A stretch of 64,000 bases of DNA from a virus: the IMG/VR virus record IMGVR_UViG_3300028901_000316, one strand, 5' to 3'. The position numbers were made by a program, and so were the translations under genes. This document shows, one piece after another, positions 6,200 to 49,925 of the stretch. Every line of letters begins with the position of its first letter. The first letter of the stretch is position 1. The notes under the pieces were generated by a model. The model was not told the origin of the DNA, ran no database searches, and saw nothing but the letters and a program-made list of their open reading frames with translations.

Positions 6200-6946
6200 T
6201 TAGCGACGAAGCCCGTCCGTGCCCTCTGGCGGGTCGCAGCAGCCGCGACGCTCCGACCTTGGGTCAAAGTCGCCGGGCACGACCTGGCGGGGCAGCGTGG
6301 CCCTCGGGCGAAGTTCTGGCGAGTCGGCGGGGATCCCCATCGCGATCTCGTGGAGCTTGGTCGCCAGTGCGTTGACGGGTGGACGCCGCTTAATGGGGAC
6401 GAACGGCACCTCGACCGCGTCGGGATTCCAGACCAGCGCCTCGGACAGGTCAAACGCCACCATGGCGTAGACCGCGCAGGGTGTGAGCGTCCAGAACGTG
6501 TCGATCGCGACACCGCCCCACCACTTGGGCACGAGCATCCGCAGCTCGCTCGCCTCTTCGGGCGACTGGATGATCGCCACCACGTCGAGGTCCTTGATGG
6601 GACGCGAGGGTTGCAGGACGGCCGATCCGGTCACGTAAAGGCGAGCAACCGACGCGATTGAGGCGAAGGCCTCGCGCAGCGCCGGCAGTTCGGGCGGCAG
6701 GTAGAGCCGCGTCGCGTCGAGATGCCGCCGGACCTTGATCGGGCTGTAGCGAGTGCCGTGAGCGAGGCGCCGGACCGACCAGTCGATGAAGGGCTGGGTC
6801 ACGACCCCGCCGGTGTGGCGAGGTCCTTGGGCCCGCGGGCACGCGATATCGCAGTCCACCTTCCCGACGCGCGAGACCTCACCCACCACATGGGCCATCG
6901 GGATGCAGGCGCCGCCGGGATCGAGGTGAGGACATTGGTTCGTCAT
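6200..6946 (-). CDS. Putative Pol-beta-superfamily nucleotidyltransferase-domain protein
   Basis: LYVTGSAVLQPSRPIKDLDVVAII fits the hG[GS]-x-DhD signature; ATGA overlap with the upstream gene. Confidence 0.55.
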   Translation of the reverse strand: MTNQCPHLDPGGACIPMAHVVGEVSRVGKVDCDIACPRAQGPRHTGGVVTQPFIDWSVRRLAHGTRYSPIKVRRHLDATRLYLPPELPALREAFASIASVARLYVTGSAVLQPSRPIKDLDVVAIIQSPEEASELRMLVPKWWGGVAIDTFWTLTPCAVYAMVAFDLSEALVWNPDAVEVPFVPIKRRPPVNALATKLHEIAMGIPADSPELRPRATLPRQVVPGDFDPRSERRGCCDPPEGTDGLRR

Positions 6947-7689
6947 GTCGGGCGGTTGCTCCACACAATCGTGATCTCGTCGCACCGCGCCGTCGAGTCG
7001 TAATCGTCGCCGCAGCTCGCGTCGCTCCCGCCCGTGTAGGACCAGGAGAAGGTGTGGCCCGCGCCGTCCGTAAATGTGCCGCCCGTCGCACAGCCGCAAA
7101 GGTCGACGCCGAACACGCTGCGGAACCACTCACAGCTTGCCTGCACCGAGTCGCCGACATAGAGCGAGACGAGGAAGTTCTGCTTCGCGGTGTTGTAACC
7201 CTCGATGCAGGTCGCGAACGCTTCGATTTCGAGGTCGAGGCACGGGATAGCCGAGTCGCATCCGGTCGGCGGGATCTCGTCCGACGTGCAGATCGGTTCG
7301 GTCGTCGCGCTCGAGCCCACCGCCGCGATCGCGTCGCGGGTGCCGCGCGAGTAGGTCCGCCCCGAGCCCGCCGCGCCCGTGTGGTGGATCCACTTGCCGG
7401 CGGCGGTCGAGTTCCGGACGAGCCCGAGTGTCGCGACCGACCCGCCCGCGAGCGAGAACAGCGTCGTGTCCGCCGCATCCTTCACCGCGATCGCATTCGG
7501 CCCCGAGTTGTGGAGCACGTATTGGCCGAAGCCCAGCCCGATCCGGCGGGCGTCGTCGAGCTTCACCGACTTTCCCGAGGTGGCGGCCGACACGTTCCAC
7601 GCGCGAGCAAGCCCGTAGGTCAGCTTGTGGCTGCTCGTCACCGCAAGGTATCGGCCGGCGCCGAGGAATCGTTCGCGCGAGATCGTCAT
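6943..7689 (-). CDS. Putative tail-tip protein with a Cys-rich C-terminus
   Basis: MTISRERFLG...; N-terminal ~100 aa resembles the C-terminal extension of the neighbouring DUF2460 gene; 7 Cys in the C-terminal half. Confidence 0.6.
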   Translation of the reverse strand: MTISRERFLGAGRYLAVTSSHKLTYGLARAWNVSAATSGKSVKLDDARRIGLGFGQYVLHNSGPNAIAVKDAADTTLFSLAGGSVATLGLVRNSTAAGKWIHHTGAAGSGRTYSRGTRDAIAAVGSSATTEPICTSDEIPPTGCDSAIPCLDLEIEAFATCIEGYNTAKQNFLVSLYVGDSVQASCEWFRSVFGVDLCGCATGGTFTDGAGHTFSWSYTGGSDASCGDDYDSTARCDEITIVWSNRPT

Positions 7690-7691
7690 CT

Positions 7692-8669
7692 TCAGCCCTC
7701 GCTCGCGTACACCGTCACCGCCCCGCCACTCGCGAGGCTCGCCCAAACGATCACGACCTTGCCCGCCTGGCAGGTGATCAGCGTCGAGCCGTCGTGTGTC
7801 TTGATGTCGAAGTCATTTGCACCGTCGTTGGCGACCACCAGCATGGGCCAGCCTGTCGGGCCCGTGCTCATGTCCCAGAGCGTTCCCGCCTTCCCGCTCG
7901 CGGTCGCGTTGACGCTCCAGAGCAGGCCATCGAGTGGGTCGAACGTGAAGTTGTCGGCCGTCGCGAGTTCGTACGACCCGCCGTGATTCACATCGCTCGC
8001 GACCTCGAGGCCGTCGATGATCTCCTCCATCGGCAGACTGCTGATCTCGCGCGTGCCGAAGGTTGAGCAGTCGATCGGGTTATTGCGATCGGCCGATTCG
8101 CTGAACCGCACCGGCACATCGAACTGCCCGCCCCAGGTCGGGATCACGCCCACACCCGGCGGCGACGTGAAGGTCAGCAGGCCCGTCGCGGTGTTGACAC
8201 TCCAGCCCGACATCTGCTCGACGCCGTCGAGCCCGATCCGCACCGTGCCGGCCCGCGGCTTCGTGATGTTCCGCACATACGACTGCCCGCCGTTGGTGTA
8301 TCGCTTCACGAGCTGGAACGTGGTCTTGACCCCATCGCCGACGCCCAGTTCCTGATCAAATGGAGTCGCGACCGAGCCGGGCAGTGCGCCGTGATCCGCC
8401 GACGTGAGAAAGTCGGTCCAGTCCTTCAAGCGGAAGCCACGCTCGGCACCACGCCGCGCGAAGTAGAAGCTCAGGATCGCGGCGATCTTGTCCGGAGCCT
8501 TCGCGGTCTCGCGGATGTCGTAACGGTGCACCGCGACCTGCGCGAGCGACGTGCGCTGCTCCGCGCGGTTGGGAGTCCGGATGATCGACGTGTTGAACCC
8601 AGCCCCGAACGTCGAGCCATAGCTCACGCCCTCGGGGAACAGAACTTCATCGAAAGGTCCGCTCGGCAT
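7692..8669 (-). CDS. DUF2460 (TIGR02217) distal tail protein with a C-terminal extension
   Basis: FDEVLFPEGVSYGSTFGAGFNTSI...ARRGAERGFRLKDWTDF...LGVGDGVKTTFQLVKRY...RNITKPRAGTVRI...GGQFDVPVRF. Confidence 0.9.
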   Translation of the reverse strand: MPSGPFDEVLFPEGVSYGSTFGAGFNTSIIRTPNRAEQRTSLAQVAVHRYDIRETAKAPDKIAAILSFYFARRGAERGFRLKDWTDFLTSADHGALPGSVATPFDQELGVGDGVKTTFQLVKRYTNGGQSYVRNITKPRAGTVRIGLDGVEQMSGWSVNTATGLLTFTSPPGVGVIPTWGGQFDVPVRFSESADRNNPIDCSTFGTREISSLPMEEIIDGLEVASDVNHGGSYELATADNFTFDPLDGLLWSVNATASGKAGTLWDMSTGPTGWPMLVVANDGANDFDIKTHDGSTLITCQAGKVVIVWASLASGGAVTVYASEG

Positions 8670-8727
8670 GGCCGATTGGAGCAGCTGGGAGCGGTTGCGC
8701 TTCGGTTACGCCGAGTTTGCGTCCAGT

Positions 8728-9045
8728 TCATGAGACCCCGCCCGCGCACGCAAATAGAACCAGCCACGCCGCCTTGCAAAGGATGTGCAGAAACTGGTCC
8801 TGCCCGAACGTTGTGACACGCCGCACCTTCAGTTCGTCAATCGCCGTGTGGGCCGCGATCTCCGCGAGGCCCATCGCGATCGAGCCGGTAACGAGCGAGA
8901 CCGCTGCCCCGTGGATTGTCGCGTGGCCGACTAGATGCCACAGCCGAAGTGGACCGTCCTGCTTCGCCCGGGACAGGAAATCTCCCTGGAGCGGGTAATC
9001 ACAGACAAAGTGGGCGGCCAGAAGATAGAGCGCAAGGGTCAGCAT
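8728..9045 (-). CDS. DUF3307-family membrane protein
   Basis: LLAAHFVCDYPLQGDFL...HLVGHATIHG...AHTAIDELK...DQFLHILCK. Confidence 0.8.
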   Translation of the reverse strand: MLTLALYLLAAHFVCDYPLQGDFLSRAKQDGPLRLWHLVGHATIHGAAVSLVTGSIAMGLAEIAAHTAIDELKVRRVTTFGQDQFLHILCKAAWLVLFACAGGVS

Positions 9046-9318: not shown

Positions 9319-9591
9319 ATGGCCAAGCCACCAATCTCGCCAGCGACCTGGGATCGACTCCGCGCTCTGGACTCCAGTTGCGACTTCAGGTTGCTGCGCC
9401 GCTCAACCGAGCCCAAGCCCGGAGAATCGTTCACGAGCAGTCGAAACTACCCGCGCATGTGGGTGGTAGAGATTTGGATCCAGTCCGACGAACGAAAGCG
9501 GCTCCGAATCGACGGCCCTGACCTCGCCGGCACACTTGAGACGGCGATCGAACGAGCAGAGCAACTGCTGCAGGGCCCGTGGAAGGCTTAG
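9319..9591 (+). CDS. Hypothetical protein (90 aa), one of the few plus-strand genes
   Basis: Natural-looking composition (MAKPPISPATWDRLRAL...WVVEIWIQ...ETAIERAEQLL); no minus-strand gene competes for the space. Confidence 0.6.
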   Translation: MAKPPISPATWDRLRALDSSCDFRLLRRSTEPKPGESFTSSRNYPRMWVVEIWIQSDERKRLRIDGPDLAGTLETAIERAEQLLQGPWKA

Positions 9592-9622
9592 TCCTTCTGG
9601 ACGGTGAGAAACGCATAAGCCG

Positions 9623-9832
9623 TCATGCGCCGTCAACTCGAAGAGGCATTCCCGCGGCGGCAAAGATCCGCACCGCGGTTTCCAGCGTGACATCCTTTTT
9701 TCCCGCAAGCCAGTTCGAGACGTTCGGCGCCGGGCATTTCGCTTCCCGCGCCAGCGCCGCGATGCTGATGCCGTGTTCGTCCATGTGGGCACGGAGAGCG
9801 GCCCGGAGATCGTTTGAGGTTGTTGCAGTCAA
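9623..9832 (-). CDS. XRE-family helix-turn-helix protein
   Basis: LRAHMDEHGISIAALAREAKCPAPNVSNWLAGKKDVTLETAVRI. Confidence 0.85.
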   Translation of the reverse strand: MTATTSNDLRAALRAHMDEHGISIAALAREAKCPAPNVSNWLAGKKDVTLETAVRIFAAAGMPLRVDGA

Positions 9833-10146
9833 GAGGATCCTCCCAAGAGTGCACGCAGAAGTCGTTTCCCGCCGACCGATGTTCCGACACCAAAAAGGCC
9901 AGGGTGTCGTTTGCGCAGCATCGCGACCAGTTCAGTCGCGTAGCCCATTCGTCGATGCCGATCAACCACGGTGACGTACTCAAGCACGGGTCCAAATGGC
10001 TTGGGGACGTCCCAGACCGTCGCATGGGCCACCGGATACGGCGCGTCAATGTCGTTCGCGCACGCCAAGTAGACAAGTCGGCTGCCGTGGCTATGGCGCG
10101 GGCTCGGCACCAGGCGATATCTCCATACGCGCAGACGCGGTGTCAA
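9829..10146 (-). CDS. Small GNAT-like acetyltransferase (start uncertain)
   Basis: LEYVTVVDRHRRMGYATELVAML matches the acetyl-CoA-binding motif A; TTGA overlap with the HTH gene. Confidence 0.55.
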   Translation of the reverse strand: MTPRLRVWRYRLVPSPRHSHGSRLVYLACANDIDAPYPVAHATVWDVPKPFGPVLEYVTVVDRHRRMGYATELVAMLRKRHPGLFGVGTSVGGKRLLRALLGGSS

Positions 10147-10774
10147 CGCGATCGGACGCGATGGCGGGCGACCTCGACTCGTTGACTTTCTGCGCATCCG
10201 CACGATCCTCCTGACGCAACATCCACCGCAGACGACCGACAGCACCGACGCTGATGTGCAGCAGATACGCCACGTGGGCCCGCGGGAGATCTCCGACAAG
10301 GATCTCACGCACGCCGGGAACGCGATACCAGCCGGCGTCGCGACACCGCTTGCCCACATAGGCAAGCATGGCCCGCTCGACCGCGCTGTGCTTTCGATTG
10401 TGCCGAGAGGCGAACTCCTCGATCGTCATGGTCGAGAGGTCGTCGAGCCTCGCCTGCCACCACGCGTCGGCGTCCGAGTATCGGTTATGACCAAGAAGGC
10501 GGCGCAGTCGCTTGATCGCGCCCCGGCCGATCGGCAGTTGCCAGACCGCGGCATCGCGCCGGTGGCGCTCAAGATAGTCCACGAGCGGGCGCGTCGGGAT
10601 CACGCGCGGACCGCCATATCCCTTGCCGCGAGCGCCCGCAGGCCAACCAAGCAGCACCTCAAAGCCATGGGCGGTCGGGCGTGCCTCACGCACATCCCAC
10701 GCGTCATCCCACGCGTCGTTCGCCGATCCGATGATGGTTGCGACACGCGCCAAAACCGACACGCCCGCTTTCAC
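10091..10774 (-). CDS. Conserved-looking hypothetical protein, possibly HTH-containing
   Basis: WDVREARPTAHGFEVLLGWP...GGPRVIPT...LPIGRGAIKRLRRLLGHN...WWQARLDDLSTMTIEEFA. Confidence 0.65.
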   Translation of the reverse strand: MKAGVSVLARVATIIGSANDAWDDAWDVREARPTAHGFEVLLGWPAGARGKGYGGPRVIPTRPLVDYLERHRRDAAVWQLPIGRGAIKRLRRLLGHNRYSDADAWWQARLDDLSTMTIEEFASRHNRKHSAVERAMLAYVGKRCRDAGWYRVPGVREILVGDLPRAHVAYLLHISVGAVGRLRWMLRQEDRADAQKVNESRSPAIASDRVDTASARMEISPGAEPAP

Positions 10775-10822
10775 GGGCGCACCGGACGCCCCGCCGCCCG
10801 CGGGCGACGACGGGGCAGGGAA

Positions 10823-11041
10823 TCAGGACATGACAGCGGTTTCGATCCGGGTGACCACTGCTTTCATGGCGCGGTTCTTGTTGCCGGTCGTGCCCAATCG
10901 CTGATTCAGGATTCGCTCCGCACCCTTGTAAGTGAGCTTGCGGTCGTGAACGAGAGTTGTCGTCTGTTCGTACCGCATGGGCTGCGAGCCAGAGCCGGCA
11001 GGAATGGTGTACGTCACGGTGTTGGCAATCTTCATGTTCAA
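10823..11041 (-). CDS. Hypothetical protein (72 aa)
   Basis: ATG start with AAAGGGA upstream; first gene after a promoter-like site. Confidence 0.55.
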   Translation of the reverse strand: MNMKIANTVTYTIPAGSGSQPMRYEQTTTLVHDRKLTYKGAERILNQRLGTTGNKNRAMKAVVTRIETAVMS

Positions 11042-11104
11042 TCCCTTTGCGTCCCCACGCTGCTCTCCGCGTGGCCGAGTGTCGGGCTCGTGCCTGACCC
11101 CTAT

Positions 11105-11132
11105 ACCATAGCATATCGGCTATCGTTGTCAA
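11105..11132 (-). promoter_or_regulatory. Sigma70-like promoter driving the small-gene cluster
   Basis: TTGACA-16 nt-TATGGT with a TG extension, in an AT-rich patch. Confidence 0.55.
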
Positions 11133-11207
11133 TGGATTTAGTTGCGAAACGTGAAAAAACATGCCTAAACGCGTCGGGCACGCCCCAAGTCGATCCTAAA
11201 ACGAGGT

Positions 11208-11927
11208 TTAGGCCGGAATTGCGGCCTCTGTGACGTTTCCGGCCAGCACGCGCCAATAGGGCGGCGTCACCGGCGCCTCACACGTCTTCTCGATCGCGAG
11301 ACCGTGGTTGCGTGCAAACTCGACCGGAAGATTTCTCGCCGGCTGACCGTCGCTGGTCTTCCAGTCGGAAGTAAACGAATCGATGGGATCAGGAAGCGTC
11401 TCGATCTTCATCTCGACAACGCGACCAAAGCCCTGCGACGCCTTCTTTCCGATGTGGGTGATGTGCTTGGCGAGGCGGTTCACGTTCTTCCGGAAACCGA
11501 CCGCGTAGAACACCAGCTCGGGCATCCACACGGTTTCGAGCCGACCCATCGTTTCCTTGAACCGACCCATCGTGAGCGGCACCTGCGTCGCCTTGCCCAT
11601 ATCGAGCATGTCCTCATGCTGGTGCTCGAACTTCTTGGACCAAAACTGCTGCGACGAGACGCCGAGCGGAACGACAGCGGACGCACGGAACCACCACGCC
11701 GACCCGTGCCTCATTCGGAGCAGCGGGAGCGTCACGCACTCGCACGGCTCCTGTCCCGCATCAAGCTCTGCGGTCGTGGACGGCTGGCGATGGATCTTGA
11801 CCCACGAAAGAAGCGAGTCGAAATGGATCGGGCCGCCGGAGAACACGACCGGAGCGGCCATCGTGAAGGTGATCCGCATCGGAACGGGCTTGGGAGAGTC
11901 GCCTACTCGGAGATCTTGGTGATCCAC
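11208..11927 (-). CDS. csf3: Type IV CRISPR Csf3 (Cas5-like)
   Basis: MRITFTMAAPVV...PIHFDSLL...LPL...WWFRAS...GRFKETMGRL...LVFYAVG...HITHIGKKASQGFGRV (G-rich loop)...RNLPV...PPYW; GGAGG RBS. Confidence 0.85.
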   Translation of the reverse strand: MDHQDLRVGDSPKPVPMRITFTMAAPVVFSGGPIHFDSLLSWVKIHRQPSTTAELDAGQEPCECVTLPLLRMRHGSAWWFRASAVVPLGVSSQQFWSKKFEHQHEDMLDMGKATQVPLTMGRFKETMGRLETVWMPELVFYAVGFRKNVNRLAKHITHIGKKASQGFGRVVEMKIETLPDPIDSFTSDWKTSDGQPARNLPVEFARNHGLAIEKTCEAPVTPPYWRVLAGNVTEAAIPA

Positions 11928-12775
11928 GCGGCCACCTCCTTCGCGTTGCTGGTCATGTAGGAGCGGTAGAGGTCCGTGCTGGGCAGCTGGCTCAAATCGA
12001 TTTCCGCCCGCACCCGTCCCATCCCGACCTGCAGCATGCCGCCCAGTCGCGGGTCCTCAAGCCACGACTCCACCGCGTCCCGAAGGCACGCCGCTTCGAG
12101 TTCGGTCGCGCGGCGGAGCCAGAACCCACCGACGAGCTGAGTGCCGGGGTTGAGGATCTCGGTCTCGTAGATCATCTGCACCGAATCGTCGCTGGCCGAC
12201 TGGTCGGCTGGCTTGGCGTGAGGATCGGACACCGATTGGTCCCGCCGCGTCGCCATGTTGGTGCTCAACAGTGCGTGAGCGGGCGTTTCAGACGGGACTC
12301 CGGTGATGATCGCCGTCTCGGCGCATACCGGTATGATCTGGTCCACGCTCAGCGACCCCGGCGTGATCGCTCCGTGCAACACACCGCCAAGCAGACCGAT
12401 CGCCGGCACGGCCGATCGGATCTCTCGCAGCAGGGTCACGCGGTGCGCGTGGTGCATGTCGCCCTTGTTGAGCGCGCCGCCCGAGAACAGCGTGTGGTAG
12501 ACGGGCAACGGAACTTGGGCGAGCCCGACCAGCTCCAAGGTGCGCCTGGCGATGATCCGCCGCAGCTGACCCCGCAGAGAATTTCCGGTGACGATCGGGA
12601 CTTCGACCGGCTGACCGTTGTGCATTACGGTCATGCGGCGGTACATCTTCTGATTGCCGGCGTTCTCGTCAGAAGAGTGACTTAGGGGCGCGACCGCCGT
12701 CATCCGCAACAGCAAATGGGTCGTCGTCCTGTTTTTTGTCTGCTGCCCGTCCACGACGCTTTGGGGTTGTGCCAT
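11903..12775 (-). CDS. csf2: Type IV CRISPR Csf2 (Cas7-like backbone)
   Basis: MTAVAPLSHS...VPIVTGNSLRGQLRR...TLFSGGAL...IGLLGG...GSLSV...IPVCAET...TRRD...QMIYETEILNPGT...LGGMLQVGMGRV; GAGGAG RBS. Confidence 0.9.
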   Translation of the reverse strand: MAQPQSVVDGQQTKNRTTTHLLLRMTAVAPLSHSSDENAGNQKMYRRMTVMHNGQPVEVPIVTGNSLRGQLRRIIARRTLELVGLAQVPLPVYHTLFSGGALNKGDMHHAHRVTLLREIRSAVPAIGLLGGVLHGAITPGSLSVDQIIPVCAETAIITGVPSETPAHALLSTNMATRRDQSVSDPHAKPADQSASDDSVQMIYETEILNPGTQLVGGFWLRRATELEAACLRDAVESWLEDPRLGGMLQVGMGRVRAEIDLSQLPSTDLYRSYMTSNAKEVAAWITKISE

Positions 12776-13175
12776 CGGCACGCTCCTCACGGGCGCGTCT
12801 GCGTTCGTCCGAGATTGCTCTCACGACCGAGACCACAAGTCCCGGCTGCCGACGAACACACCGCACCGCTTCCTGATTTTCAATGTGCGACATCGTCCTC
12901 GCCTCTGCGATCAGCGACTTGTCGATGAGTTGGGGGCTGACATGACACTTGGTCGCCAGCCTGAAGATCCACGAGATCGTGTCGGGCTCGTTGCCGGTCG
13001 CGCGGATTCGAGTCTCGAACCGCTGCCACACTCCCGCGCCGGCGGTCCGCCAGAGGGCTCCGTCGAAGTCGATGAGCCTCCACACGTTCACGGCCAGCAG
13101 GGCCGCGACCGATTCGGCCTTCGAAAGGCCAAGTTCCGCGAGCAGCGCCCGATCCGCTTCGCCGATGACCGACAT
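12669..13175 (-). CDS. cas11: Type IV-B Cas11-like small subunit
   Basis: 168 aa all-helical protein (AVNVWRLIDF...WQRFETRIRA...WIFRLATK) in the canonical position between csf1 and csf2. Confidence 0.65.
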   Translation of the reverse strand: MSVIGEADRALLAELGLSKAESVAALLAVNVWRLIDFDGALWRTAGAGVWQRFETRIRATGNEPDTISWIFRLATKCHVSPQLIDKSLIAEARTMSHIENQEAVRCVRRQPGLVVSVVRAISDERRRAREERADGTTPKRRGRAADKKQDDDPFAVADDGGRAPKSLF

Positions 13176-13185
13176 GACGACGCTC

Positions 13186-13851
13186 CTACCGCTTGGGTTC
13201 GATCGCGATCCCCAGCCGCTTCGCCAGCTCGACCGCGACCTCTTTGTTTGGGATGATCGGGACCATGATGCCAAACAGCGTTGTGCCCCGGGCGAGTTGC
13301 GCAAGCGCGTCAAGCCCGCGGATGTGCACAATCCCAGTCCGCTGGTAGTCGCCCGAGTCGTAGCGCCCGGACAGAATCGACTCGCGCGAGCAGCCGCGGA
13401 GGTAAAGCTCAAGGGCCGCACGCATCCAAGCCTCGTCCCGACGTCGCGAGAAGTCGGCGCTCAGCTGTTCGCACTGGACACGCCAGAAATCGCGCGACTG
13501 GGCCACGCGCTGGCGAAAGACGCCGTGCTTCTGAAACGAATGGCTCAGAAACAGGACGAACGGCGGTTCGGGCGGAAACAGCACGGTCTCCCACGCGTCG
13601 GGGATCTTGAGCGGCGCAAAGCCGCCGGCCGACACCACAAAGGCGCTGCGGGTGCGCCGGTCCGCCAAACACGCCTCGCACGCCCAACAGACGCGGTCTG
13701 AGTGCAGTTCGTCGAGGTTGGTGAACGTGTCCTTGAGCACCTTCGCGGCGGGCCTTGCCGGTTCGAGCGCACCGCAGAGGCCGCACGCGGCTCTTTCTCC
13801 ATCGTGGGGGCTGGCTCCCAGCGCCTTGGCGGTCATGACGGTCGCGCTCAT
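13186..13851 (-). CDS. csf1: Type IV CRISPR Csf1 (Cas8-like, Zn-binding)
   Basis: ACGLCG...KDTFTNLDEL...VCWACEAC...PPEPPFVLFLSHSFQKH; ATGA overlap with cysH-like gene. Confidence 0.85.
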   Translation of the reverse strand: MSATVMTAKALGASPHDGERAACGLCGALEPARPAAKVLKDTFTNLDELHSDRVCWACEACLADRRTRSAFVVSAGGFAPLKIPDAWETVLFPPEPPFVLFLSHSFQKHGVFRQRVAQSRDFWRVQCEQLSADFSRRRDEAWMRAALELYLRGCSRESILSGRYDSGDYQRTGIVHIRGLDALAQLARGTTLFGIMVPIIPNKEVAVELAKRLGIAIEPKR

Positions 13852-14609
13852 GCGTGCTCCGCAATTTGGGGGAACTCTCGCTTCATCCGCGCGAAGTATT
13901 CCGGGAAGTGGTGCTTGAGCCACGCGACGCGGCCCGAACGCGCCGCCCCGTCTGTCGTGGTCCACCCCGCGTTCCGGATTGTCTCGCGCGTCTGCCCATG
14001 CGTCTCCAAGTCGTACAGCGGCAGGTAGGGAAGGCCATTCACCGCGATGCAGGCCCAGACGTCGCGGGCCGACCAGTCGAGGAGCGGGAGGCACCGCGTC
14101 ACCCCGTCCGAATGCGGGTAGATCGCCCCCCGGGCTCTCGCGTTCATCGCGCGGGCGCCGGACTCGGCACCGCGAAGGCCCAGCGCCATCACGCCGAATC
14201 CTCGCTCGATCGCGTACGCCGTGCCCTTCGACTTCTTCAGCGACTGCACCACGGCCGCCTGTTGCGAAGCGGTCCGCTCGTGTCCGAGCCCGACTTCGTG
14301 CGTCCAGGCCAGCCGTTCCTCGATCGTCGCCATCGGAGTGCGAAAGACGCTGACGCGCATGTGCTCGGCGCACCACGCCTCAATCTCGTCGGTCCCCGGC
14401 ATGGCGGCTGGGGACGGCATGTGCAAAACCTCGGTCAGCCCGGCCCGGGCCGCGAGGTAGACCAGCACGACCGAATCCTTGCCCCAGGACGATGAGACGA
14501 GCACGCGGCCGAGCGACGCGGCCTCGGCCAGTCGTTCGGATGCACGTTCGACCGCCACCGCGTAGGCGCGGGTGCGGGCGTGGATTCTGTACTGAAGCAG
14601 AGAGGACAC
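13848..14609 (-). CDS. cysH: CysH/PAPS-reductase-like protein (type IV-B accessory)
   Basis: VLVSSSWGKDSVVL (PP-loop), LGLRGAESGAR, LPLLDWSARDVWACIAVNGLPYLPLYD; no C-terminal ECG motif. Confidence 0.85.
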   Translation of the reverse strand: MSSLLQYRIHARTRAYAVAVERASERLAEAASLGRVLVSSSWGKDSVVLVYLAARAGLTEVLHMPSPAAMPGTDEIEAWCAEHMRVSVFRTPMATIEERLAWTHEVGLGHERTASQQAAVVQSLKKSKGTAYAIERGFGVMALGLRGAESGARAMNARARGAIYPHSDGVTRCLPLLDWSARDVWACIAVNGLPYLPLYDLETHGQTRETIRNAGWTTTDGAARSGRVAWLKHHFPEYFARMKREFPQIAEHA

Positions 14610-14665
14610 GTCTCAGCGAAGACTTTCGGTCCGGTTGCGCCCCGCGATCGCGACGAGCTGGGATA

Positions 14666-21502: not shown

Positions 21503-21874
21503 TCACCTCAGTTGCAGTTCGTACGCCGCGACCAGTGTCCCCGACCGATACGGCTTGACCGACTCGATTCGACGCGTCTCGGTCCCGAAGGTGAGTTCCA
21601 TACCGGCCACCGGTGAGAAGGTCAGGCCCTTGGCAGCGACAAGCGCCAGCTCGTCGGTCGCCAGAACCGACACCCCGTCGATGAACTCCTTGTCGTAGCC
21701 GACCGGCGGCGAGATCTTGCGCACGACGTTCTGCGAATCGATGTCGGTGACGGTGCCGGCCACCGGATCACGCGTCTTGGTCACGACCTTGAAGGTCGCG
21801 GGGATCCCGACGCCGTCCGGGCCCTCGATCGCGTCCCACACGTCCTGCGGCGCTTCGGCATCAAGCTCCGTCAT
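21503..21874 (-). CDS. Head-closure/adaptor protein
   Basis: MTELDAE...GYDKEFIDGVSVLATD...YELQLR; ATGA overlap with the upstream gene. Confidence 0.7.
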   Translation of the reverse strand: MTELDAEAPQDVWDAIEGPDGVGIPATFKVVTKTRDPVAGTVTDIDSQNVVRKISPPVGYDKEFIDGVSVLATDELALVAAKGLTFSPVAGMELTFGTETRRIESVKPYRSGTLVAAYELQLR

Positions 21875-22398
21875 GCCAGCACCCTCCGGCCCTGCATCGA
21901 GGACCCAACCAGCAGGTTGGCGAGCGCGTTCCCGACCTCGGGATAGGTGGGCTGCTGGCTCGTTCCCGAAGTGTCGGCCCACTTCTTGCGGGTCGTGAGC
22001 GGACCGACCTTCGTCTCCTTCTCGACCAGCGCGCCGTCCTGCTTCACGTCGGGCGCGAGCGCGCCAGCCAGCGCACGCGGGGCCAGGAGGGCTTGGGCGA
22101 GCTTCCACTGGTCCGGCACCGCCGTCGAGTCGAGCAACCAGCCGTCCCGCGTGTGGGCGTTGTAACGCGGCCACGCGCGAGCCTGGGTCGGCAGCACCCG
22201 CTCTCCGCCGAGCAGCGACTCGTACGCCGCGTCCATGAAGAGTGCGGCCTGGCGGAGCGCGACCTCCTGCTGGCCGGTCGTCGCGGCCGCGAACGTCGTG
22301 TCGGTGGACCACTTTGCGAGCAGCGCGACCGCATCAGATGCCGACAGGTAGCTGTCCGCGCCCGCCACGCCCGCTCCGGTTTCGACGATCAGTGCCAT
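21871..22398 (-). CDS. Head-tail connector (DnaT-like phage family)
   Basis: MALIVETGAGVAGADSYLS...QARAWPR...VPDQWKLAQALLA...KETKVGPLT. Confidence 0.8.
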   Translation of the reverse strand: MALIVETGAGVAGADSYLSASDAVALLAKWSTDTTFAAATTGQQEVALRQAALFMDAAYESLLGGERVLPTQARAWPRYNAHTRDGWLLDSTAVPDQWKLAQALLAPRALAGALAPDVKQDGALVEKETKVGPLTTRKKWADTSGTSQQPTYPEVGNALANLLVGSSMQGRRVLA

Positions 22399-22412
22399 CG
22401 TGCGCCTCCAAT

Positions 22413-22480
22413 CGCAGGCCCGGGATTCGAACCCGGCGATGTCGGGATATGAGTCCGACGCGAGCCCAAGCCCGCCTGCT
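22413..22480 (-). tRNA. tRNA-like element (fMet-like, CAT anticodon, shrunken D arm), probably a pseudo-tRNA
   Basis: GCAGGC/GCCTGC acceptor; GGGC-TTGG-GCTC mini D arm; GTCGG-ACTCATATC-CCGAC; T arm CCGGG-TTCGAAT-CCCGG; no CCA. Confidence 0.7.
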
Positions 22481-22826
22481 TCCTGAGTGTCGTTTAGCCA
22501 TCGGGCTAAATGTCGCCCACCGTGTTCGTTTGTGCGGCCCGCGCCGGACAGTCATGGGCCAGCGCGGGCCGCCAACGTGGTGTAGTTCTGAATCGCCCCA
22601 CCGGATCGTGACTTCCGGCGGGGCTTTCGCGGGTCTCAAGTTGCTCTCTGAATGGCCCCGCCGCGCTGCAGCACGACGAGGCTGGTCATGAAAAGGGTCT
22701 GCCTCTAAATACTCCGGGCCGCCGTCCAACAGCCCGGAGCGGAGCAAGAACGTGACCCGCAAGTTGCCGACCTGACCAAAGCCTGGCCCTACACCTGCGG
22801 GTAACTCGGGCTCGGCCGCGCTTGAA
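22481..22826 (-). ncRNA. Candidate structured non-coding RNA upstream of the tRNA-like element
   Basis: ~345 nt with no credible ORF and several long hairpins (CTCCGGGCTG/CGGCCCGGAG; GCCCCGCCGGA/TCCGGTGGGGC; GCGGCCCGCGCTGG/CCGGCGCGGGCCGC; TTTAGCC/GGCTAAA). Confidence 0.4.
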
Positions 22827-23324
22827 TCACTTCTTGGCGTCGTCGGCCTTGGCCTCGGACTTCGCGCTGGGCTTCGTCTCGCCCTTCGCCGACTTGTCGC
22901 CCTTCGCGCCCGTCTCGTTGTTGGCCGCACGGCCCACAGGAGGCTGGTTCTGATCGTCCTTGATCGCCTGCGCGTCGCCGTTCAGGCCGACTTCGCGACG
23001 GACCTCGATGCCTTTGTTCGCATCGGGCGTTTCGCCGTCCGGAGCGTCTGAGTTCTTCGCTGCCTCCCAAGCGGCCCGCTTGGCTTCATGCGCCGCTTTA
23101 CGGGCGATCGCGCCAGCGTCTTCTTCTGACTTGCCCTCCGACAACGCCTTCTTGAACGCGTTGTTGCCGGCGAGCGTGTAAGCGACCTCGGGATCAGTCG
23201 TGCCCTTCGGCGGCGTCTGGGTGTAGCCCTGCGCCACGTAGGACTGCAGTTGTCCCGGCTCAACCAATACCCGCACCGGCGGGTTGTCGTTGCTCCACGT
23301 TTCGACGAGTGTTCCGTGTGACAT
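22827..23324 (-). CDS. Hypothetical capsid-associated protein (Ala/Lys-rich)
   Basis: MSHGTLVET...; GGAG RBS; directly downstream of the major capsid gene. Confidence 0.65.
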   Translation of the reverse strand: MSHGTLVETWSNDNPPVRVLVEPGQLQSYVAQGYTQTPPKGTTDPEVAYTLAGNNAFKKALSEGKSEEDAGAIARKAAHEAKRAAWEAAKNSDAPDGETPDANKGIEVRREVGLNGDAQAIKDDQNQPPVGRAANNETGAKGDKSAKGETKPSAKSEAKADDAKK

Positions 23325-23382
23325 GCGAATCTCCAAATGGGGTGAAGACAACCCCGCCACGTTTCCGCGACGGGGTGTTGAA

Positions 23383-24549
23383 TTAGCCGGCCAGTCGAGC
23401 GGCGAGTTCCGGACGCACGAGCTTTGCGCCCCAGAGGGCATCGATCTCGTACACCGTTTGCTTGCTCTGGCGAATCTTCTCGATGCGAAGCACCAGCTTG
23501 GTGACCGGATCCTGCATCGTCTGGATGTTGGGATCGCCCGCGTCGTCTTCGAGCGAGCGCATCGCGAACGCAAACGCGTCGCGATGGAACCCCATGTTGA
23601 CGACGTGAGTCGCACGCAGAGTCACCGCCTCGCCACCGGCCTTCGCCGTCTTGAGCGCCGGCGCGATCGCGACGGTGGTGTTGCCGACCGCCAGATTCAC
23701 ATCCGCCAACACCACATAGGTCTGGGGGTCGTTGGCAAACGAGATGATGTCGCCCTTCACCAGCGGAGTAGCGTTGGTCGCCTTCGCGATCGAGACCGTA
23801 CCGGTGCGCCCGCCGTCCGTGCTGCCTGCGTTGACGGCCTGCGCGCCGTTGGCCGTGCAGGCGCCGGCCGTGAGGACCGTCGAGCTATGGGTGGGAATCT
23901 GGTCCTCAGCGAACCAGTTGAGGCCGAACTTGCGACCGATGTCGCCCTCTCGCTTGGTGTCGCCATTGTCCGAAGTCTGGCTCGCATCGCTGAACTCAGG
24001 GCGGGCCAGCGCGTTCGCCTCCGCATTGGTATCGATGACGGCATTACGGAGCGAACCCCTGGGGCAGAGCTGGCGATTCAGCACCGCGCGGAGCGCCGTC
24101 GCGTCCGTGATTCCCGCGCCGAACGGCGTGGTACCCGCTGTACCGCAGTAGCCGTAAACACCCTTGTACTCCGCGAGGATGCTCGCGTTGATCGCCTCGA
24201 TCAGCGCCTTCATGCCCTCGGAGAGCTGGAGCGGCAAGAAGTGCTTGTTCTTGTCGATCTCCTTCATCTCCTTGTCGGTGAGGGCAATCGGATCGGTCTT
24301 CTTCCAGTTGTTCAGCGGGACCTGAACCAGTGCGACCTTCTGGTCCACGGGAACAGGGAGGACGTTGGAAGGCACCACGTCCTGAACGCCGACTGCCGTC
24401 GGGAGCGGGACGTCGATCGTCGATCCCTTTGCCTTTGCCTCCATCGAGTAGTCGCTGTTGACCAGGCTGGGCATCAGCACCGACTTGCGGAGCGTCTTCA
24501 TACCCGCGGCCAGAAGGCGCGGCATGATGTTGGTGTTGTCATTTGCCAT
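23383..24549 (-). CDS. Major capsid protein (P22 coat-like)
   Basis: MANDNTNIMPRLLAAG...LVNSDY...KGSTIDVPLP...GDIGRKFGLNWFAEDQ...VVNMGFHRDAFAFAMR...YEIDALWGAKLVRPELAARLAG. Confidence 0.9.
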   Translation of the reverse strand: MANDNTNIMPRLLAAGMKTLRKSVLMPSLVNSDYSMEAKAKGSTIDVPLPTAVGVQDVVPSNVLPVPVDQKVALVQVPLNNWKKTDPIALTDKEMKEIDKNKHFLPLQLSEGMKALIEAINASILAEYKGVYGYCGTAGTTPFGAGITDATALRAVLNRQLCPRGSLRNAVIDTNAEANALARPEFSDASQTSDNGDTKREGDIGRKFGLNWFAEDQIPTHSSTVLTAGACTANGAQAVNAGSTDGGRTGTVSIAKATNATPLVKGDIISFANDPQTYVVLADVNLAVGNTTVAIAPALKTAKAGGEAVTLRATHVVNMGFHRDAFAFAMRSLEDDAGDPNIQTMQDPVTKLVLRIEKIRQSKQTVYEIDALWGAKLVRPELAARLAG

Positions 24550-24634
24550 GATTCATGAACCTCATTCGTTGGGCTTGTGCCCGGTGCGTTTGACCTTCAA
24601 CACGCAGCCATCCCGGCCGTTCGGCGTCCCGCCT

Positions 24635-25429
24635 TTAATCCACAACCTTGACTGATCCGTCCGCGATCCCGTCGAAGTTCGCCTGCATCGCTTCGGCGTC
24701 GCTGCGGCTCACGGTCTTTGCAGCTCCACTGCGTGCCGCCGTGCCGCCCGACTGGCCTCCACCCGTTGCCCCGCCGCCAGAGTTCCCACTTGCTTCGAAA
24801 CACATCGCGTAGTCGCGATCGGACGCAAGTTCGTCGACGAACTCCTCGGGCGACATTGGAGCTTGCGGGTTCTTCGGGCTGATGCGCACAACGCCGTCGC
24901 CGCCAATCACCTCCGTCACGTACTTGCCATCCACTTTCCGCACCCGAAGGTGCGGACTCGCGACAGGCATGAGCAGCTTGACGTTTCCCTTCCTGGCAAC
25001 GATCGCTTGCTGGAGCTTCGATGTGCCGATCTCGCCCAGCAATTGGGCTTCCGCGGTGGCGAGCTCTTGCTTGAGGGACGCGAGTTCCTTCCCGTGCGCC
25101 GTCGCCATCTGAGACTTGATCGACTCGATCTCTTTCCTCGCCTTGTCGTCCGGGCTACCCGACTTCTGCCACTCAAGGACTTGCTCGTGGGACTTGAGGA
25201 CGTCGTCGATGCTGCGATCCCCGAGCTTCGACAGAGTCGCCTTCAGTTCCGCCGCTGCACTCCGCTCCTTCTCAAGCGCTGAGCGAAGCCCCTTTACGTT
25301 CTCCAACGCGAAGCCATCGACAGCTTCAACTTGGAGAACAAACGTCCCGTCAGCCTCCGGGGCGTACAACTCCTTCAGAGCGTCAGGGAGATCATCGATC
25401 GACTTCAACCGCGCCTTGGCCTTGGCCAT
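24635..25429 (-). CDS. Capsid scaffolding protein
   Basis: SIDDLPDALKELY...DGTFVLQVE...NVKGLRSALEKER; coiled-coil; C-terminal SGNSGGGATGG. Confidence 0.8.
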   Translation of the reverse strand: MAKAKARLKSIDDLPDALKELYAPEADGTFVLQVEAVDGFALENVKGLRSALEKERSAAAELKATLSKLGDRSIDDVLKSHEQVLEWQKSGSPDDKARKEIESIKSQMATAHGKELASLKQELATAEAQLLGEIGTSKLQQAIVARKGNVKLLMPVASPHLRVRKVDGKYVTEVIGGDGVVRISPKNPQAPMSPEEFVDELASDRDYAMCFEASGNSGGGATGGGQSGGTAARSGAAKTVSRSDAEAMQANFDGIADGSVKVVD

Positions 25430-25537
25430 ATTCAATCTCCTGCGGCTTCCCGCCGCGCAACGGGCCACGCTGGCCCGGTGACGCATCCCGCGCCACGCCC
25501 AATCACGCCCCACCCTCTCGGTTGCGCTCACGCTCGC

Positions 25538-26620
25538 TCAGCGGCCGTCGCCGATCCCGTGCCGGCGCTTGAGTTCATCAAGCCCGATCACGCGGTCCTT
25601 GTCCGCGAACTCGCCCGGGTCGAGCTTGCCGGCACGCAGCAGCCGCGCCCGCTCTGGCCCCAGCGCCTCGTCCTGCCTCGCCGCGCTCTGACGCTTGATC
25701 CACCGGGACCATGTCTGGTCGGCCGCTACTTGGCCGTCCATCGAGGCCCGCGTGCCTGCTGGCGCGTCCGCCAGGTCGATCCCAAGCTCTTTCCACGACT
25801 TGGTGACCGGCACCGGCGTGCACCGGCAGTTCATATGCGGGGCCGCGAACCCGACCTCGATGTCGTAGACCTTGCCGTCTCGCGCGCCGCAGACCTCGCA
25901 CGTGCGGGTGTCGAGGGTCGCGACCCACTTCCAGCCCTTAACCACGTCCTTGTTGGCGCGGAAGGTCCGCATCCGCGCCGCGCCCGTCACGTCGGTCGCG
26001 GCCGTCCGCACCAGCGCCTCGGCCTCCCGGCGGGTCGTCTGCAGGATCCCGTTCCCGTATTGCGCCGCCCGGGTGCCGCGGATCGCGCGGATCATCTCGT
26101 CCACGCTCTCGCCCCGCACGAGCCCTTGGTTGAGCCGCGTGATGATCCGGTCGCGGGTCCGGATCCCCAGATCCTCACTCCACTCGCTCAGGAGCTTTCC
26201 GGCCAGCGGACCGCGCTCGACCAGTTCGGCCAGAAGCGGCCTCGCGGGCAACTTGAGTTCGAGGTTGATCGGTGCGGCCGATCTGATTGCCCGCACCTGC
26301 CACGTCGCCTCAGCCTGCGCGATCTCAACCAGGTCGCGGCGAAGCCGGTTTATCGCACGCCCGACGTCTGGCGCAATGGTGGCGTCCAGATCATCGGCAA
26401 GCCGGCTGATGACTCGGCGCACCACGCCGGACGTGATGGATCGGCCCTCCAGGTCGATCAGCGCACGCGGGAGCAGATCGATCACGTCCGCGAATGCCCC
26501 GTCGTTGAGCAGCGAGATGAAGTCCCGAACCTGCTGGTTCTTGTGCCGCTCGATCAAAACCCCGCGGGCGATCGCGTCGTCCTGGAGTTGCTCGTTGGTG
26601 GTTGGCTGGTTTCGGTCCAT
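25538..26620 (-). CDS. Head morphogenesis protein (Mu F / SPP1 gp7)
   Basis: EAEALVRTA...GWKWVATLDTRTCEVCGARDGK...PHMNCRCTPVPV...TWSRWIKRQS..QDEALG. Confidence 0.9.
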   Translation of the reverse strand: MDRNQPTTNEQLQDDAIARGVLIERHKNQQVRDFISLLNDGAFADVIDLLPRALIDLEGRSITSGVVRRVISRLADDLDATIAPDVGRAINRLRRDLVEIAQAEATWQVRAIRSAAPINLELKLPARPLLAELVERGPLAGKLLSEWSEDLGIRTRDRIITRLNQGLVRGESVDEMIRAIRGTRAAQYGNGILQTTRREAEALVRTAATDVTGAARMRTFRANKDVVKGWKWVATLDTRTCEVCGARDGKVYDIEVGFAAPHMNCRCTPVPVTKSWKELGIDLADAPAGTRASMDGQVAADQTWSRWIKRQSAARQDEALGPERARLLRAGKLDPGEFADKDRVIGLDELKRRHGIGDGR

Positions 26621-26632
26621 CCGCGTCTGGGC

Positions 26633-26857
26633 TCACATGCGTTCCTGAATCCGCTCCTGTGCCCACTCGATGAGCTGCAGGCAGATTCCGGTGGTGTCGG
26701 GATAGATCGACGCTTGCGACGCGGTTATGACCGTGAGGGGAAGCTCTGTCGGCTTTGAGAATCGCTCCCGAATCAGCACCAACGCTTTCGACCGCGTCGC
26801 CAACTCCCTGATCAGGTCGTCGGTCGGCACCAGCGTGATGTCGGGCTTGCCACTCAC
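26633..26857 (-). CDS. Hypothetical protein (74 aa)
   Basis: GTGA overlap with the portal stop; LVPTDDLIRELATR. Confidence 0.6.
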   Translation of the reverse strand: MSGKPDITLVPTDDLIRELATRSKALVLIRERFSKPTELPLTVITASQASIYPDTTGICLQLIEWAQERIQERM

Positions 26858-28401
26858 GCCGCCGCTCCACTCGCGTCGCCCGCCCCGCCCGAGCTACCGC
26901 CCGTGCCCGTGCCTTGGCCCGAGCCTCCAACTGCCTGTCTGGCCGGAACGTCGAGGTGATTGCTCATCCCGCCGAGCGCCGGTCCCTCGGCCTCGATGCG
27001 CGCCATTTCCTCCGTGATGTCGAGTTCGGGGCTGAGCGTGCTGCGGCGCTGAAGCTCCTTGAGGTACGTCTCGCGCGACAGATCGCCCGCGGCCCTCGCG
27101 GCCTGTATCGAGTTCAGGTCTTGCTGCGACGCGGGCAGGATGAAGTCGCTGAAGATCCGGACCTCAAACCCGTCTGGCAGTGCGGTCCCGGCCCACTCGC
27201 ACGCATATTCGCACGCTTCGCGCCAGATCCGCTCCAGCGAGCGAATCCACCGCTGCGCGACCGACATGTCGCGGCTCTCGTCGATCGACTTCCCGGTCGC
27301 GGTCGAGGACGCGGAACGCTCTACGAACGGCCGCATCCCCAGCGTCTGCATCTGCTCCTCGAGCGCACGAAGCTCGTCAACCCCGACCTTGATCGCGTCG
27401 CCCTTCTGCTCGGCGAAATCGACCCGTGCGTCCGACTCGGGAAAGCTCAGGAAGCTCGCCGGCGTGACCTTCACCTCTTTGGGCTTGTCATTGCTGGTCG
27501 TGTCGGCCTTGGGCTTGTGGCCCGTGATGTAGAGCATCGCGATGCGGGCAAACGCGGTCGCGTAGCGCTGCGCCGCTGTGGACTGCCAGTGGGCGACGTT
27601 CAGATAGGCCAGATCCTCGTAGGGCGGCTTCGCGACCATGCAGCCTTCGCGGTCGAAGTAGCAGGTGAAGATCGGGACGCGATCGAGCGGCTTCCCGTTC
27701 TTGAGCAGCGGGACCGAGGCCTCAACCTTCCACTCGGTCTTGCCATTCTCGTCCTTTTTCTCTCGCCACACCGTCACCGATTCTGGCGTGATGACCCGCA
27801 CCGTGTTGGTGGTGGTCTCGGACCAGTCGGCCTCCACCACCGTCTCGGTCTTGCGGATCCGCACCTCGGTCACGATCGTGGTCGAGCCTCGCTGCTCAGT
27901 CCGCCACCCGATCACGTCGCGCGGGTCCACCATCACGAGTGTCGGCCGCGCCCCGACCTGCATCTCGTCCGCCCGCGTCGCGTTGTTCGGCACGGTGGTG
28001 TAGTCCACCAACAGATGGACCATCCCATACCGAGCCGCCGCACCGAACGCCTCGCGCAGCTGCTCGTCGGCCGACATTCCGGCGCCGTCGATGTTCGAGA
28101 GCAGGGACTCGAGCCACGTCTTGGCCTCGCCCTTGAGATCCTCGACGCCCTCGAACGTGACCGCTTTGGCGAACGGTCGATTGGTCGCGTCGTCGATCGC
28201 TTGGCCGAGCCCGTTGTAGAGAACCGCGAGCTTGAGCTTCGACCTGTAGTCCTCGTCGTCCTCAAGGCGCTGCTTCGGCAGGTATCGCGTTCCCAGGTCG
28301 CGCATCCGGCGCGTGCCGCCCAGCAGATCGTCGATGATCTGCCACCGCTCCGCCATAGCGGTGTAGTCACGGCAGGGCGTGTTGACGTTCGATTCAACCA
28401 T
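26854..28401 (-). CDS. Portal protein (DUF4055 type)
   Basis: WQIIDDLLGGTRRMR...YLPK...EDYRSKLKLAVLYN...KPPYEDLAYLNVAHWQS...LSRETYLKELQRR. Confidence 0.88.
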   Translation of the reverse strand: MVESNVNTPCRDYTAMAERWQIIDDLLGGTRRMRDLGTRYLPKQRLEDDEDYRSKLKLAVLYNGLGQAIDDATNRPFAKAVTFEGVEDLKGEAKTWLESLLSNIDGAGMSADEQLREAFGAAARYGMVHLLVDYTTVPNNATRADEMQVGARPTLVMVDPRDVIGWRTEQRGSTTIVTEVRIRKTETVVEADWSETTTNTVRVITPESVTVWREKKDENGKTEWKVEASVPLLKNGKPLDRVPIFTCYFDREGCMVAKPPYEDLAYLNVAHWQSTAAQRYATAFARIAMLYITGHKPKADTTSNDKPKEVKVTPASFLSFPESDARVDFAEQKGDAIKVGVDELRALEEQMQTLGMRPFVERSASSTATGKSIDESRDMSVAQRWIRSLERIWREACEYACEWAGTALPDGFEVRIFSDFILPASQQDLNSIQAARAAGDLSRETYLKELQRRSTLSPELDITEEMARIEAEGPALGGMSNHLDVPARQAVGGSGQGTGTGGSSGGAGDASGAAA

Positions 28402-49383: not shown

Positions 49384-49595
49384 GCGGCACCGCCTTTGGT
49401 TACAGCGGCCCCTAGATTTACCCATCCGCACACGATGCACCTCTTCTTGCACGGCGGGTGCTTCTTGAAGTGCGTCACCACACCGTCGTCGTCTAGCTTC
49501 ACGCATCTGCAATGCCACCATGAAGCCCAATATGCTGCTCTACGCGCGTATGCCTCATGGATTGAAAGTGGACTTCCGACATTCCCAACAGTCAT
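49380..49595 (-). CDS. Small Cys-rich hypothetical protein
   Basis: Overlapping start/stop on both sides. Confidence 0.5.
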   Translation of the reverse strand: MTVGNVGSPLSIHEAYARRAAYWASWWHCRCVKLDDDGVVTHFKKHPPCKKRCIVCGWVNLGAAVTKGGAA

Positions 49596-49825
49596 GCGGC
49601 GTCTCCTGACCTGGGCTCAAACATCGCCCGTTGGCGCGCTGCCTCGACCGCTTTCCGTTCTGCCTCTTCACCTTTCTCGGGTCGGACAATCGCGATTCCG
49701 GCAGGGGCGGTGATGAGAATCTTGACCTTCTGGTTTCCGACATGGCTCACGTCGAGCATGATCCGACGACCCGTCTCGTCGATCAGGTGAAGCTGCTGTC
49801 CGACTTCTCGTTCGATTGCAAGCAT
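49592..49825 (-). CDS. csrA: CsrA/RsmA-like translational regulator
   Basis: MLAIEREVGQQLHL...DVSHVGNQKVKILITAPAGIAIVRPE follows the CsrA pattern MLxLxRxxGE...V+IxIxAP..I.R.E; ACAAGGAG RBS. Confidence 0.75.
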   Translation of the reverse strand: MLAIEREVGQQLHLIDETGRRIMLDVSHVGNQKVKILITAPAGIAIVRPEKGEEAERKAVEAARQRAMFEPRSGDAA

Positions 49826-49845: not shown

Positions 49846-49925
49846 TGGCGAGCCCGGGATTTGAACCCGCACAGCCCTGCCCGCGTGTGGAGCCGAATGG
49901 GAACCCACGCCAGCCGCAGCTCGCC
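49846..49925 (-). tRNA. Second degenerate tRNA-like element
   Basis: 7-bp stem GGCGAGC/GCTCGCC followed by A; T-loop CGGG-TTCAAAT-CCCG; central GGGTT-CCCATTC-GGCTC arm; no normal D arm. Confidence 0.45.

Follow-up and report, generated by a model that had tools for sequence, protein, structure and literature searches.

The window analysed here is a stretch of 64 kb taken from a 66.7-kb IMG/VR provirus record, with a G+C content of 64.5%. The structural genes of the phage, together with all the features of the tract described below, are located on the minus strand. They comprise a portal gene (26854-28401), a Mu-F-like head morphogenesis gene (25538-26620), a scaffold gene (24635-25531), a P22-type major capsid protein gene (23383-24549) and a small post-capsid gene, which encodes 165 aa without a family match (22827-23324; GC3 about 0.8-0.9) and whose ATG at 23324 is preceded by the ribosome binding site GGAGA. 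The neck block begins with the gene of the head-tail adaptor Ad1 (21871-22398; PF20557 DnaT_2, phrog_477), downstream of which head closure, neck and tail tube genes are found. The tract under study is 428 nt long and extends from the TGA stop codon of the post-capsid gene (22829-22827), where it starts, to the ATG of Ad1 at 22398.

This tract is non-coding. Codon-position G+C bias is absent in every phase between 22815 and 22455, as compared to a GC3 of 0.84-0.9 in both flanking genes, and a six-frame tblastn of the tract against its relatives returned nothing other than matches to DNA-level blocks, which appeared in all frames. Both results agree with an earlier note on this DNA, made by reading the sequence, which had seen no credible ORF between the two genes and had placed the tract and its features at the right coordinates, the features being on the minus strand. 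An ORF of 198 codons running across the tract (22930-22334) was considered and rejected, given its flat codon composition, its Arg-rich product of the out-of-frame type and its lack of conservation. A 17-codon ORF (22689-22636, minus strand), with an AGAGG about 12 nt upstream, overlaps one of the hairpins described below (Hb).

The sense-strand RNA of the tract is predicted to be strongly structured, with a minimum free energy (MFE) of -224.6 kcal/mol and a z score of -6.88 with respect to dinucleotide shuffles, none of the 100 being as good. The antisense strand is 26 kcal/mol weaker (-198.1 kcal/mol, z -3.05). This difference is due to the G·U pairs contained in the stems (three in Ha, three in Hb, one in Hc and one in Hd), which become A·C mismatches on the other strand.

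Six stems can be recognised along the tract. H0 (22752-22805) is a long imperfect stem-loop located within the first ~85 nt past the stop codon. It is followed by three units that consist of a hairpin with the motif AUUYAGAR directly at its 3' side. In the first unit (22702-22739; -25.9 kcal/mol, z -2.8), Ha has a 12-bp GC stem with the three G·U pairs (stem proper 22739-22712), the loop GGAC and the tail UAUUUAGAGG. In the second (22645-22682, z -3.5), Hb has a 12-bp stem (stem proper 22682-22655) and the tail CAUUCAGAGA, and in the third (22576-22624, z -4.15) Hc has an 11-bp stem (stem proper 22624-22595) and the tail GAUUCAGAACUACACCACG. Hc with its tail is a tandem duplicate of Hb with its tail, with a period of 60 nt, and the motif GGGGC-N-ATTCAGA is found at exactly two places, which lie 60 nt from each other. 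The 3' arm of Hb is also able to pair with the 5' arm of Hc. Hd (22534-22572) has a 14-bp stem and an 11-nt loop, while He (22493-22510) is a weak 7-bp stem-loop, specific to the phage of the window, whose z score of -1.1 is not significant. The earlier note had counted at least five strong stems and had noticed the repeated motif; this description holds, He being the weak sixth stem. When the whole window was searched against Rfam at the gathering thresholds no match was obtained, and in E-value mode the tract gave sub-threshold matches to F6, CC3664, tRNA-Sec and mascRNA, none of which is credible. No promoter-like site was found in the tract or in its vicinity.

When viral, metagenome and genome collections were searched with Ad1, 166 loci were obtained. 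The closest relatives are two nearly identical contigs only, L001 (G001) and L002 (G002), whose Ad1 shows 89% amino-acid identity; the metagenome and genome collections added no close relative. Scans of IMG/VR based on the major capsid protein and on a CsrA-family protein of the phage did not retrieve relatives either. In L001 and L002 the spacer before Ad1 measures 247 nt, and what it has in common with the window is the first ~85 nt, that is the H0 region, then the tail UUCAGAACUACACCACG, and Hd. The H0 segment is about 75% identical and shows one double change, from A:U to C:G, in two compared sequences. Where the window has Ha, Hb and Hc, L002 carries a single, different hairpin, with UUUUCAGAAC behind it and then the same Hd; Hb and the 17-codon ORF are not present in L001 and L002, while the tail of Hc is identical. 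In the place of He and of the last part of the tract, L002 contains 62 unrelated nt with a hairpin that sequesters the Shine-Dalgarno of Ad1. In both contigs this sequence, GAGGGG, is buried in a 13-bp hairpin rich in G·U pairs (L002 2940-3000).

Hd is the core of the sole strongly conserved block of the tract, a stretch of 60 nt (22592-22533) formed by the UUCAGAACUACACCACG tail and Hd, which is 92% identical as compared to 76-83% for the flanking coding DNA. The loop of Hd and its 17-nt 5' flank are strictly conserved. Both substitutions in the Hd stem produce G·U wobbles, which preserve the pairing on the sense strand alone, in what is effectively a comparison of two sequences with no statistical covariation. 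A covariance model built on the Hd block found no copy in 85 other loci, and the conserved 17-mer searched against IMG/VR was found in the L001 and L002 contigs only, apart from three chance matches in coding sequence. A blastn search with the tract as query in 50,697 phage records gave just a 41-nt match, located in the coding flank.

The DNA of the scaffold gene, of the major capsid gene and of most of the post-capsid gene shows no similarity between 22994-25435 of the window and 6666-9038 of locus L085, while the rest is 76-83% identical. This lack of similarity between phages places the tract at a mosaic junction, at the right-hand edge of a module swap.

The boundary between head and neck genes was compared in more distant phages as well. 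In the nearest relatives of the capsid module (~60% identity), the capsid gene is followed by a small gene and by Ad1, with gaps of only 10, 49, 39 and 126 nt. A canonical terminator makes up two of these spacers, and a pair of GC hairpins is found in another one. When terminators were defined strictly, with a stem of at least 6 bp and at least 6 T in 8, one was present within 160 nt upstream of Ad1 in 8 of 74 distinct Ad1 relatives, with respect to 0-1 in each of eight other windows of 165 nt. A looser count was uninformative, the control being as high as the test. GC-rich hairpins with a U-tract of at least 5 U in 8 are found at this position in L002 and in relatives of lower G+C content. 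A terminator at the head/neck boundary is therefore a recurrent and position-specific feature. In the window itself, a scan between 21800 and 24700 for the consensus of Rho-independent terminators (at least 5 U in 8) returned 0 sites, and the hairpin tails of the tract have at most 4 U in 8. The tract is best read as an expanded, high-G+C version of the boundary terminator with weak U-tracts.

Partial termination or 3' stabilisation after the capsid genes is a familiar way to control the ratio of capsid to neck proteins, as done by the terminator Tphi of T7 after gene 10, and intercistronic hairpins with a stabilising function are known in the puf operon of Rhodobacter. The hairpins of the tract belong with such late-operon terminators and attenuators, with which they share the position of GC-rich sense-strand hairpins after highly expressed head genes and before genes of low copy number. 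They differ from them in that the U-tracts are weak and in that three to five hairpins are arranged in series instead of one. Moreover, termination by itself does not explain the AUUYAGAR tail and the Hd block, both of which are conserved; in particular, reading Hd as an attenuator does not account for the strict conservation of its loop and 5' flank.

The last 69 nt (22412-22480), judging from their alignment to RF00005 and from their cloverleaf fold, are derived from a tRNA-Met(CAU) and are not a recent copy of any tRNA that we found. The earlier note had described this element as a mimic with an intact T arm, a CAT anticodon resembling that of initiator tRNA, a 4-nt D loop and no CCA, and had noticed that a GGAGG begins 3 nt after it. 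All these traits were confirmed, the Shine-Dalgarno of Ad1 (22409-22405) starting 3 nt past G72. Of the searches that the same note had suggested, ARAGORN at default settings detected 0 tRNA genes in the window, and RF00005 aligned to the element end to end (22480-22412, all 71 model positions) with a score of 25.8 bits (E 1.2e-4 over the 66.7-kb record), which falls below the gathering cut-off of 29 bits. With the ARAGORN threshold lowered to 90%, a tRNA-Met(CAU) was reported in a different 5' register (22487-22412), at a setting so noisy that it gives 28 hits in 772 kb of unrelated loci, or about one spurious hit in every 27 kb. Taken by itself, the 68-mer (22480-22413) adopts the cloverleaf as its MFE structure, but the cloverleaf has a z score of only -1.65, and its acceptor stem is unformed in the MFE structure of the whole tract.

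The upper part of the molecule is the better preserved one. Six of the seven acceptor pairs are present and the discriminator is A, while CCA is missing. Position 1 and position 72 are unpaired as A·G, to be compared with the C·A of the bacterial initiator, and the 5' register is ambiguous. The T arm is perfect (CCGGG-UUCGAAU-CCCGG), with a 5-bp stem, a 7-nt TTCRANY loop and the G53:C61 pair, and its exact 11-mer GGTTCGAATCC is found once in the window. The D arm is truncated to a 4-bp stem with the 4-nt loop UUGG, in which the GG is kept, and in the cloverleaf register the linker at positions 8-9 is lacking. Provided that A31·C39 is tolerated, the anticodon arm presents CAU in a 7-nt loop, with a U at position 38. 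This arm is identical at 17 of 19 positions to that of a real initiator tRNA from a Pseudoduganella genome (G003), while the acceptor, D and T arms differ. The run of three G:C pairs that is typical of initiators (29-31:39-41), GGG/CCC in the Pseudoduganella tRNA, is in the element G:C, G:C and the A31·C39 mismatch.

With respect to tRNA-Met and initiator tRNA as represented by RF00005, the element is thus similar in its full-length alignment, T arm, acceptor pairs, discriminator, CAU and anticodon arm, and dissimilar in its sub-threshold score, short D arm, A31·C39, U38, missing CCA and lack of conservation in relatives. As far as the sequence can tell, it is not a working tRNA, because the D arm is truncated, the anticodon stem contains a mismatch and the score is below threshold, and these lesions rule out a working initiator. 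What is left is an intact acceptor/T-arm top half embedded in a longer transcript, with a damaged bottom half and without decoding capacity. The closeness of the anticodon arm to that of a real tRNA suggests a recent decay rather than a long selection acting on the top half only. The best matches among phage records are weak and correspond to annotated tRNA-Met genes. No near copy of the 3' two-thirds of the element and no donor tRNA within 3 mismatches was found in 401 sampled Pseudomonadota genomes, nor was there a match in E. coli, and two exact patterns of the tRNA-like element searched against IMG/VR retrieved no other copy.

The element is not present in L001 and L002, and a custom scanner for acceptor and T arms found none upstream of Ad1 in 153 more distant relatives. 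In one of the loci (L156, 2367-2454), ARAGORN at default settings reported a tRNA-Ser(GGA), which is probably a false positive, since it falls within an ORF of 106 codons whose end lies 2 nt upstream of Ad1.

When the window was compared with itself, a second tRNA-like element was found in a 136-nt spacer (49846-49925, minus strand). It has a perfect 7-bp acceptor stem, a T arm with the loop UUCAAAU, the discriminator A and, in the centre, a hairpin in which no anticodon is conserved, and it is located 7 nt before the AAGGAG ribosome binding site of the gene of a CsrA-family RNA-binding regulator of 77 aa (49592-49825, minus strand; PF02599 31.5 bits, phrog_9500). This second element is conserved in G001 with 8 differences over 80 nt, none of which breaks a pair: one A:U is changed to G·U, and one G·G mismatch is repaired to C:G. 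A 1-nt deletion removes the 'CAU' of the central loop in this comparison, so that in the conserved element the top half is the part that is kept. The csrA gene lies between two genes for DNA methyltransferase-like proteins, and GGA motifs in the leaders of the phage are possible targets of its product.

The arrangement of a stop codon, one or more hairpins, the top half of a tRNA and a ribosome binding site thus occurs twice in the phage of the window. Since the background of the loose acceptor/T-arm scanner is 0.016 hits per kb per strand, two hits directly before ribosome binding sites are unlikely to arise by chance. In a compact genome, however, any insert derived from a tRNA would also be expected to show such placements. 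We tentatively suggest, while regarding it as rather doubtful, that tRNA-shaped elements may serve this lineage of phages as a deliberate way of punctuating its mRNAs, with cutting by host RNase P and RNase Z setting the ends and the stability of the messages, as the counterpart in a bacterial virus of mitochondrial tRNA punctuation, here extended to a late structural operon. In a bolder version of this idea, the released hairpin or tRNA-like RNA may feed the array-less type IV-B complex of the phage.

Elements of comparable shape are the t-elements of plant mitochondria, which are tRNA-like processing signals within longer transcripts (Forner et al., 2007, PMC1920247), and mascRNA (RF01684). 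The elements described here resemble them in being tRNA-shaped without decoding, in an mRNA spacer at a gene border. The resemblance extends to the top half, the part recognised by the enzymes that process tRNA ends, which the second phage element has kept while losing the anticodon. They differ in the bacterial host, in the phage late operon and in that the element at 22412-22480 is found in one genome only; the likeness is structural, and the mascRNA model scores 15.3 bits on the tract as compared to a cut-off of 42.5. In the literature that we found, the shaping of messages through tRNA-like elements is described for organelles and for eukaryotic nuclear transcripts only. Should cleavage of the tRNA-like elements take place in vivo, it would provide a late-operon case of a phage that borrows the tRNA-processing enzymes of its host for its own messages.

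Taken as a whole, the tract is mostly an ordinary regulatory spacer with a lineage-specific add-on derived from a tRNA. The explanation that we prefer, and to which we assign about an even chance, is that it represents an attenuator zone at the head/neck boundary, enlarged by duplication, to which a lineage-specific pseudo-tRNA has been added as a plausible substrate of RNase P and RNase Z. The tract would be an untranslated spacer of the late mRNA between the head genes and the neck and tail genes. H0 and Ha to Hd would act as partial terminators and/or as hairpins that protect 3' ends, at the place where relatives have a terminator, and the run of hairpins would have been enlarged by the tandem duplication of a unit made of a GC hairpin and AUUYAGAR. 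The abundant capsid messages would end, or be stabilised, at these hairpins, and only part of the transcription would read on into the neck genes, which are of low copy number. At the edges of the tRNA-like element, the read-through RNA would be cut by host RNase P and by enzymes that trim 3' ends, such as RNase Z or RNase E, which would leave the message of Ad1 with a structured 5' end or with a short leader. On this reading, the tract illustrates how a simple head/neck terminator can grow when a unit is duplicated in tandem and a piece derived from a tRNA is inserted. The earlier note had proposed a signal for RNase P and RNase Z that releases a structured RNA. The processing signal is plausible, because the acceptor and T arm are intact, and a second element is conserved in front of a ribosome binding site; the release of a discrete RNA, on the other hand, is unsupported.

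The strongest competitor is that the last 69 nt are an inert remnant of a recently inactivated phage tRNA-Met gene, or else of a captured piece of tRNA, which undergoes no processing and serves no purpose, and that ordinary terminator or spacer sequence makes up the remainder of the tract. We regard this as possible, if on balance unlikely. The element is missing from the close relatives and from the 153 distant ones, so that it is dispensable and may be a recent neutral relic; L001 and L002 manage with their 62 nt and the hairpin that sequesters the ribosome binding site. Its few lesions (the shortened D arm, A31·C39 and U38) are those of a young pseudogene, and the sub-threshold scores and the missing second copy in IMG/VR (two exact patterns) are in keeping with this origin. 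Against the inert reading stand the failure to find a donor within 3 mismatches in the 401 Pseudomonadota genomes and the second element, which is placed in the same way and is conserved with changes that preserve pairs. An acceptor/T-arm minihelix is also the minimal substrate of RNase P, and since this minihelix is intact a total lack of processing would be surprising.

It is improbable that the tract, or a part of it, is released as a stable RNA acting in trans, either as scaffold or ligand of the type IV-B Csf complex or as a decoy for some host factor or nuclease whose target is initiator tRNA. Such a role would fit the very strong structure of the sense strand and the loop and flank of Hd, which are more conserved than the adjacent genes. 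The phage of the window has, in addition to the extra hairpins and the tRNA-like element, a type IV-B cassette, and type IV-B complexes do assemble on non-CRISPR RNA, the RNA that would be recognised by Csf3 not being known (PMC7937560). This co-occurrence, however, comes from a single genome, and there is neither a promoter-like site nor a match to an Rfam family, the CRISPR-DR families giving no match to the tract at E up to 10. The RNA on which the complex assembles is heterogeneous and non-specific in sequence, about 55-60 nt long (PMC7937560). G002 keeps Hd and yet shows no DNA match to the ~5.2 kb with the cassette (window about 9490-14665); at the corresponding place, near 17.3 kb of G002, the spacing of the flanking matches leaves no room for a cassette between the tape measure gene and the distal tail genes.

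The proposal of the earlier note that the tract is a candidate RNA ligand of the array-less Csf2 filament found no support, as the published type IV-B RNA is non-specific and Hd is retained in G002 without a match to the cassette. The terminators and terminator-like hairpins at the same boundary in relatives indicate that position explains the hairpins better than a link to Csf2. The tract has in common with CRISPR repeats, solitary repeat units, RNA anti-CRISPRs (Racr) and type IV crRNA-like ligands the short hairpins with a conserved 3' tail, in a phage with Cas genes. Its stems (11-14 bp) and loops are nevertheless longer than those typical of CRISPR repeats, the stem sequences of two units differ, and, unlike CRISPR or Racr elements, its core is kept in a relative, G002, that shows no match to the Cas cassette. 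No further copies of the hairpin unit were found in the window. The tract does not help to understand what type IV-B systems do.

A control of Ad1 by a leader peptide, with the 17-codon ORF governing the alternative pairing of Hb and Hc, or by CsrA bound to GGA motifs, is very improbable. The alternative pairing and the AGAGG in front of the ORF would suit the former, and the latter could draw on the CsrA-family protein encoded by the phage and on the GGA found in the loop of Ha, immediately upstream of the tRNA-like element and within the Shine-Dalgarno. But the ORF has no codon bias and, like Hb, is absent from L001 and L002, the tail of Hc is a poor U-tract, and GGA is not enriched, with about 6 occurrences in the tract (counted by hand) as compared to about 8 expected from composition.

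Lastly, that the element is a working, if unusual, tRNA-Met, initiator-like or elongator, supplied to translation is hardly credible: tRNA-Met belongs to the tRNAs that phages commonly carry, with annotated examples in phage records, and the isolated 68-mer does fold into a cloverleaf with CAU in a 7-nt loop (A31·C39 being allowed) and GG in the D loop, but the score is below the Rfam cut-off, ARAGORN at default settings is silent, the 8-9 linker is missing, the D loop has 4 nt, position 38 is U, the G:C run by which initiators are defined is interrupted by the anticodon-stem mismatch, and no relative conserves the element. A further tRNA-derived sequence, the 3' fragment that forms the att core, is found at the end of the prophage (48-115 of the window, minus strand), and its T arm and acceptor are unrelated to those of the element in the head operon.
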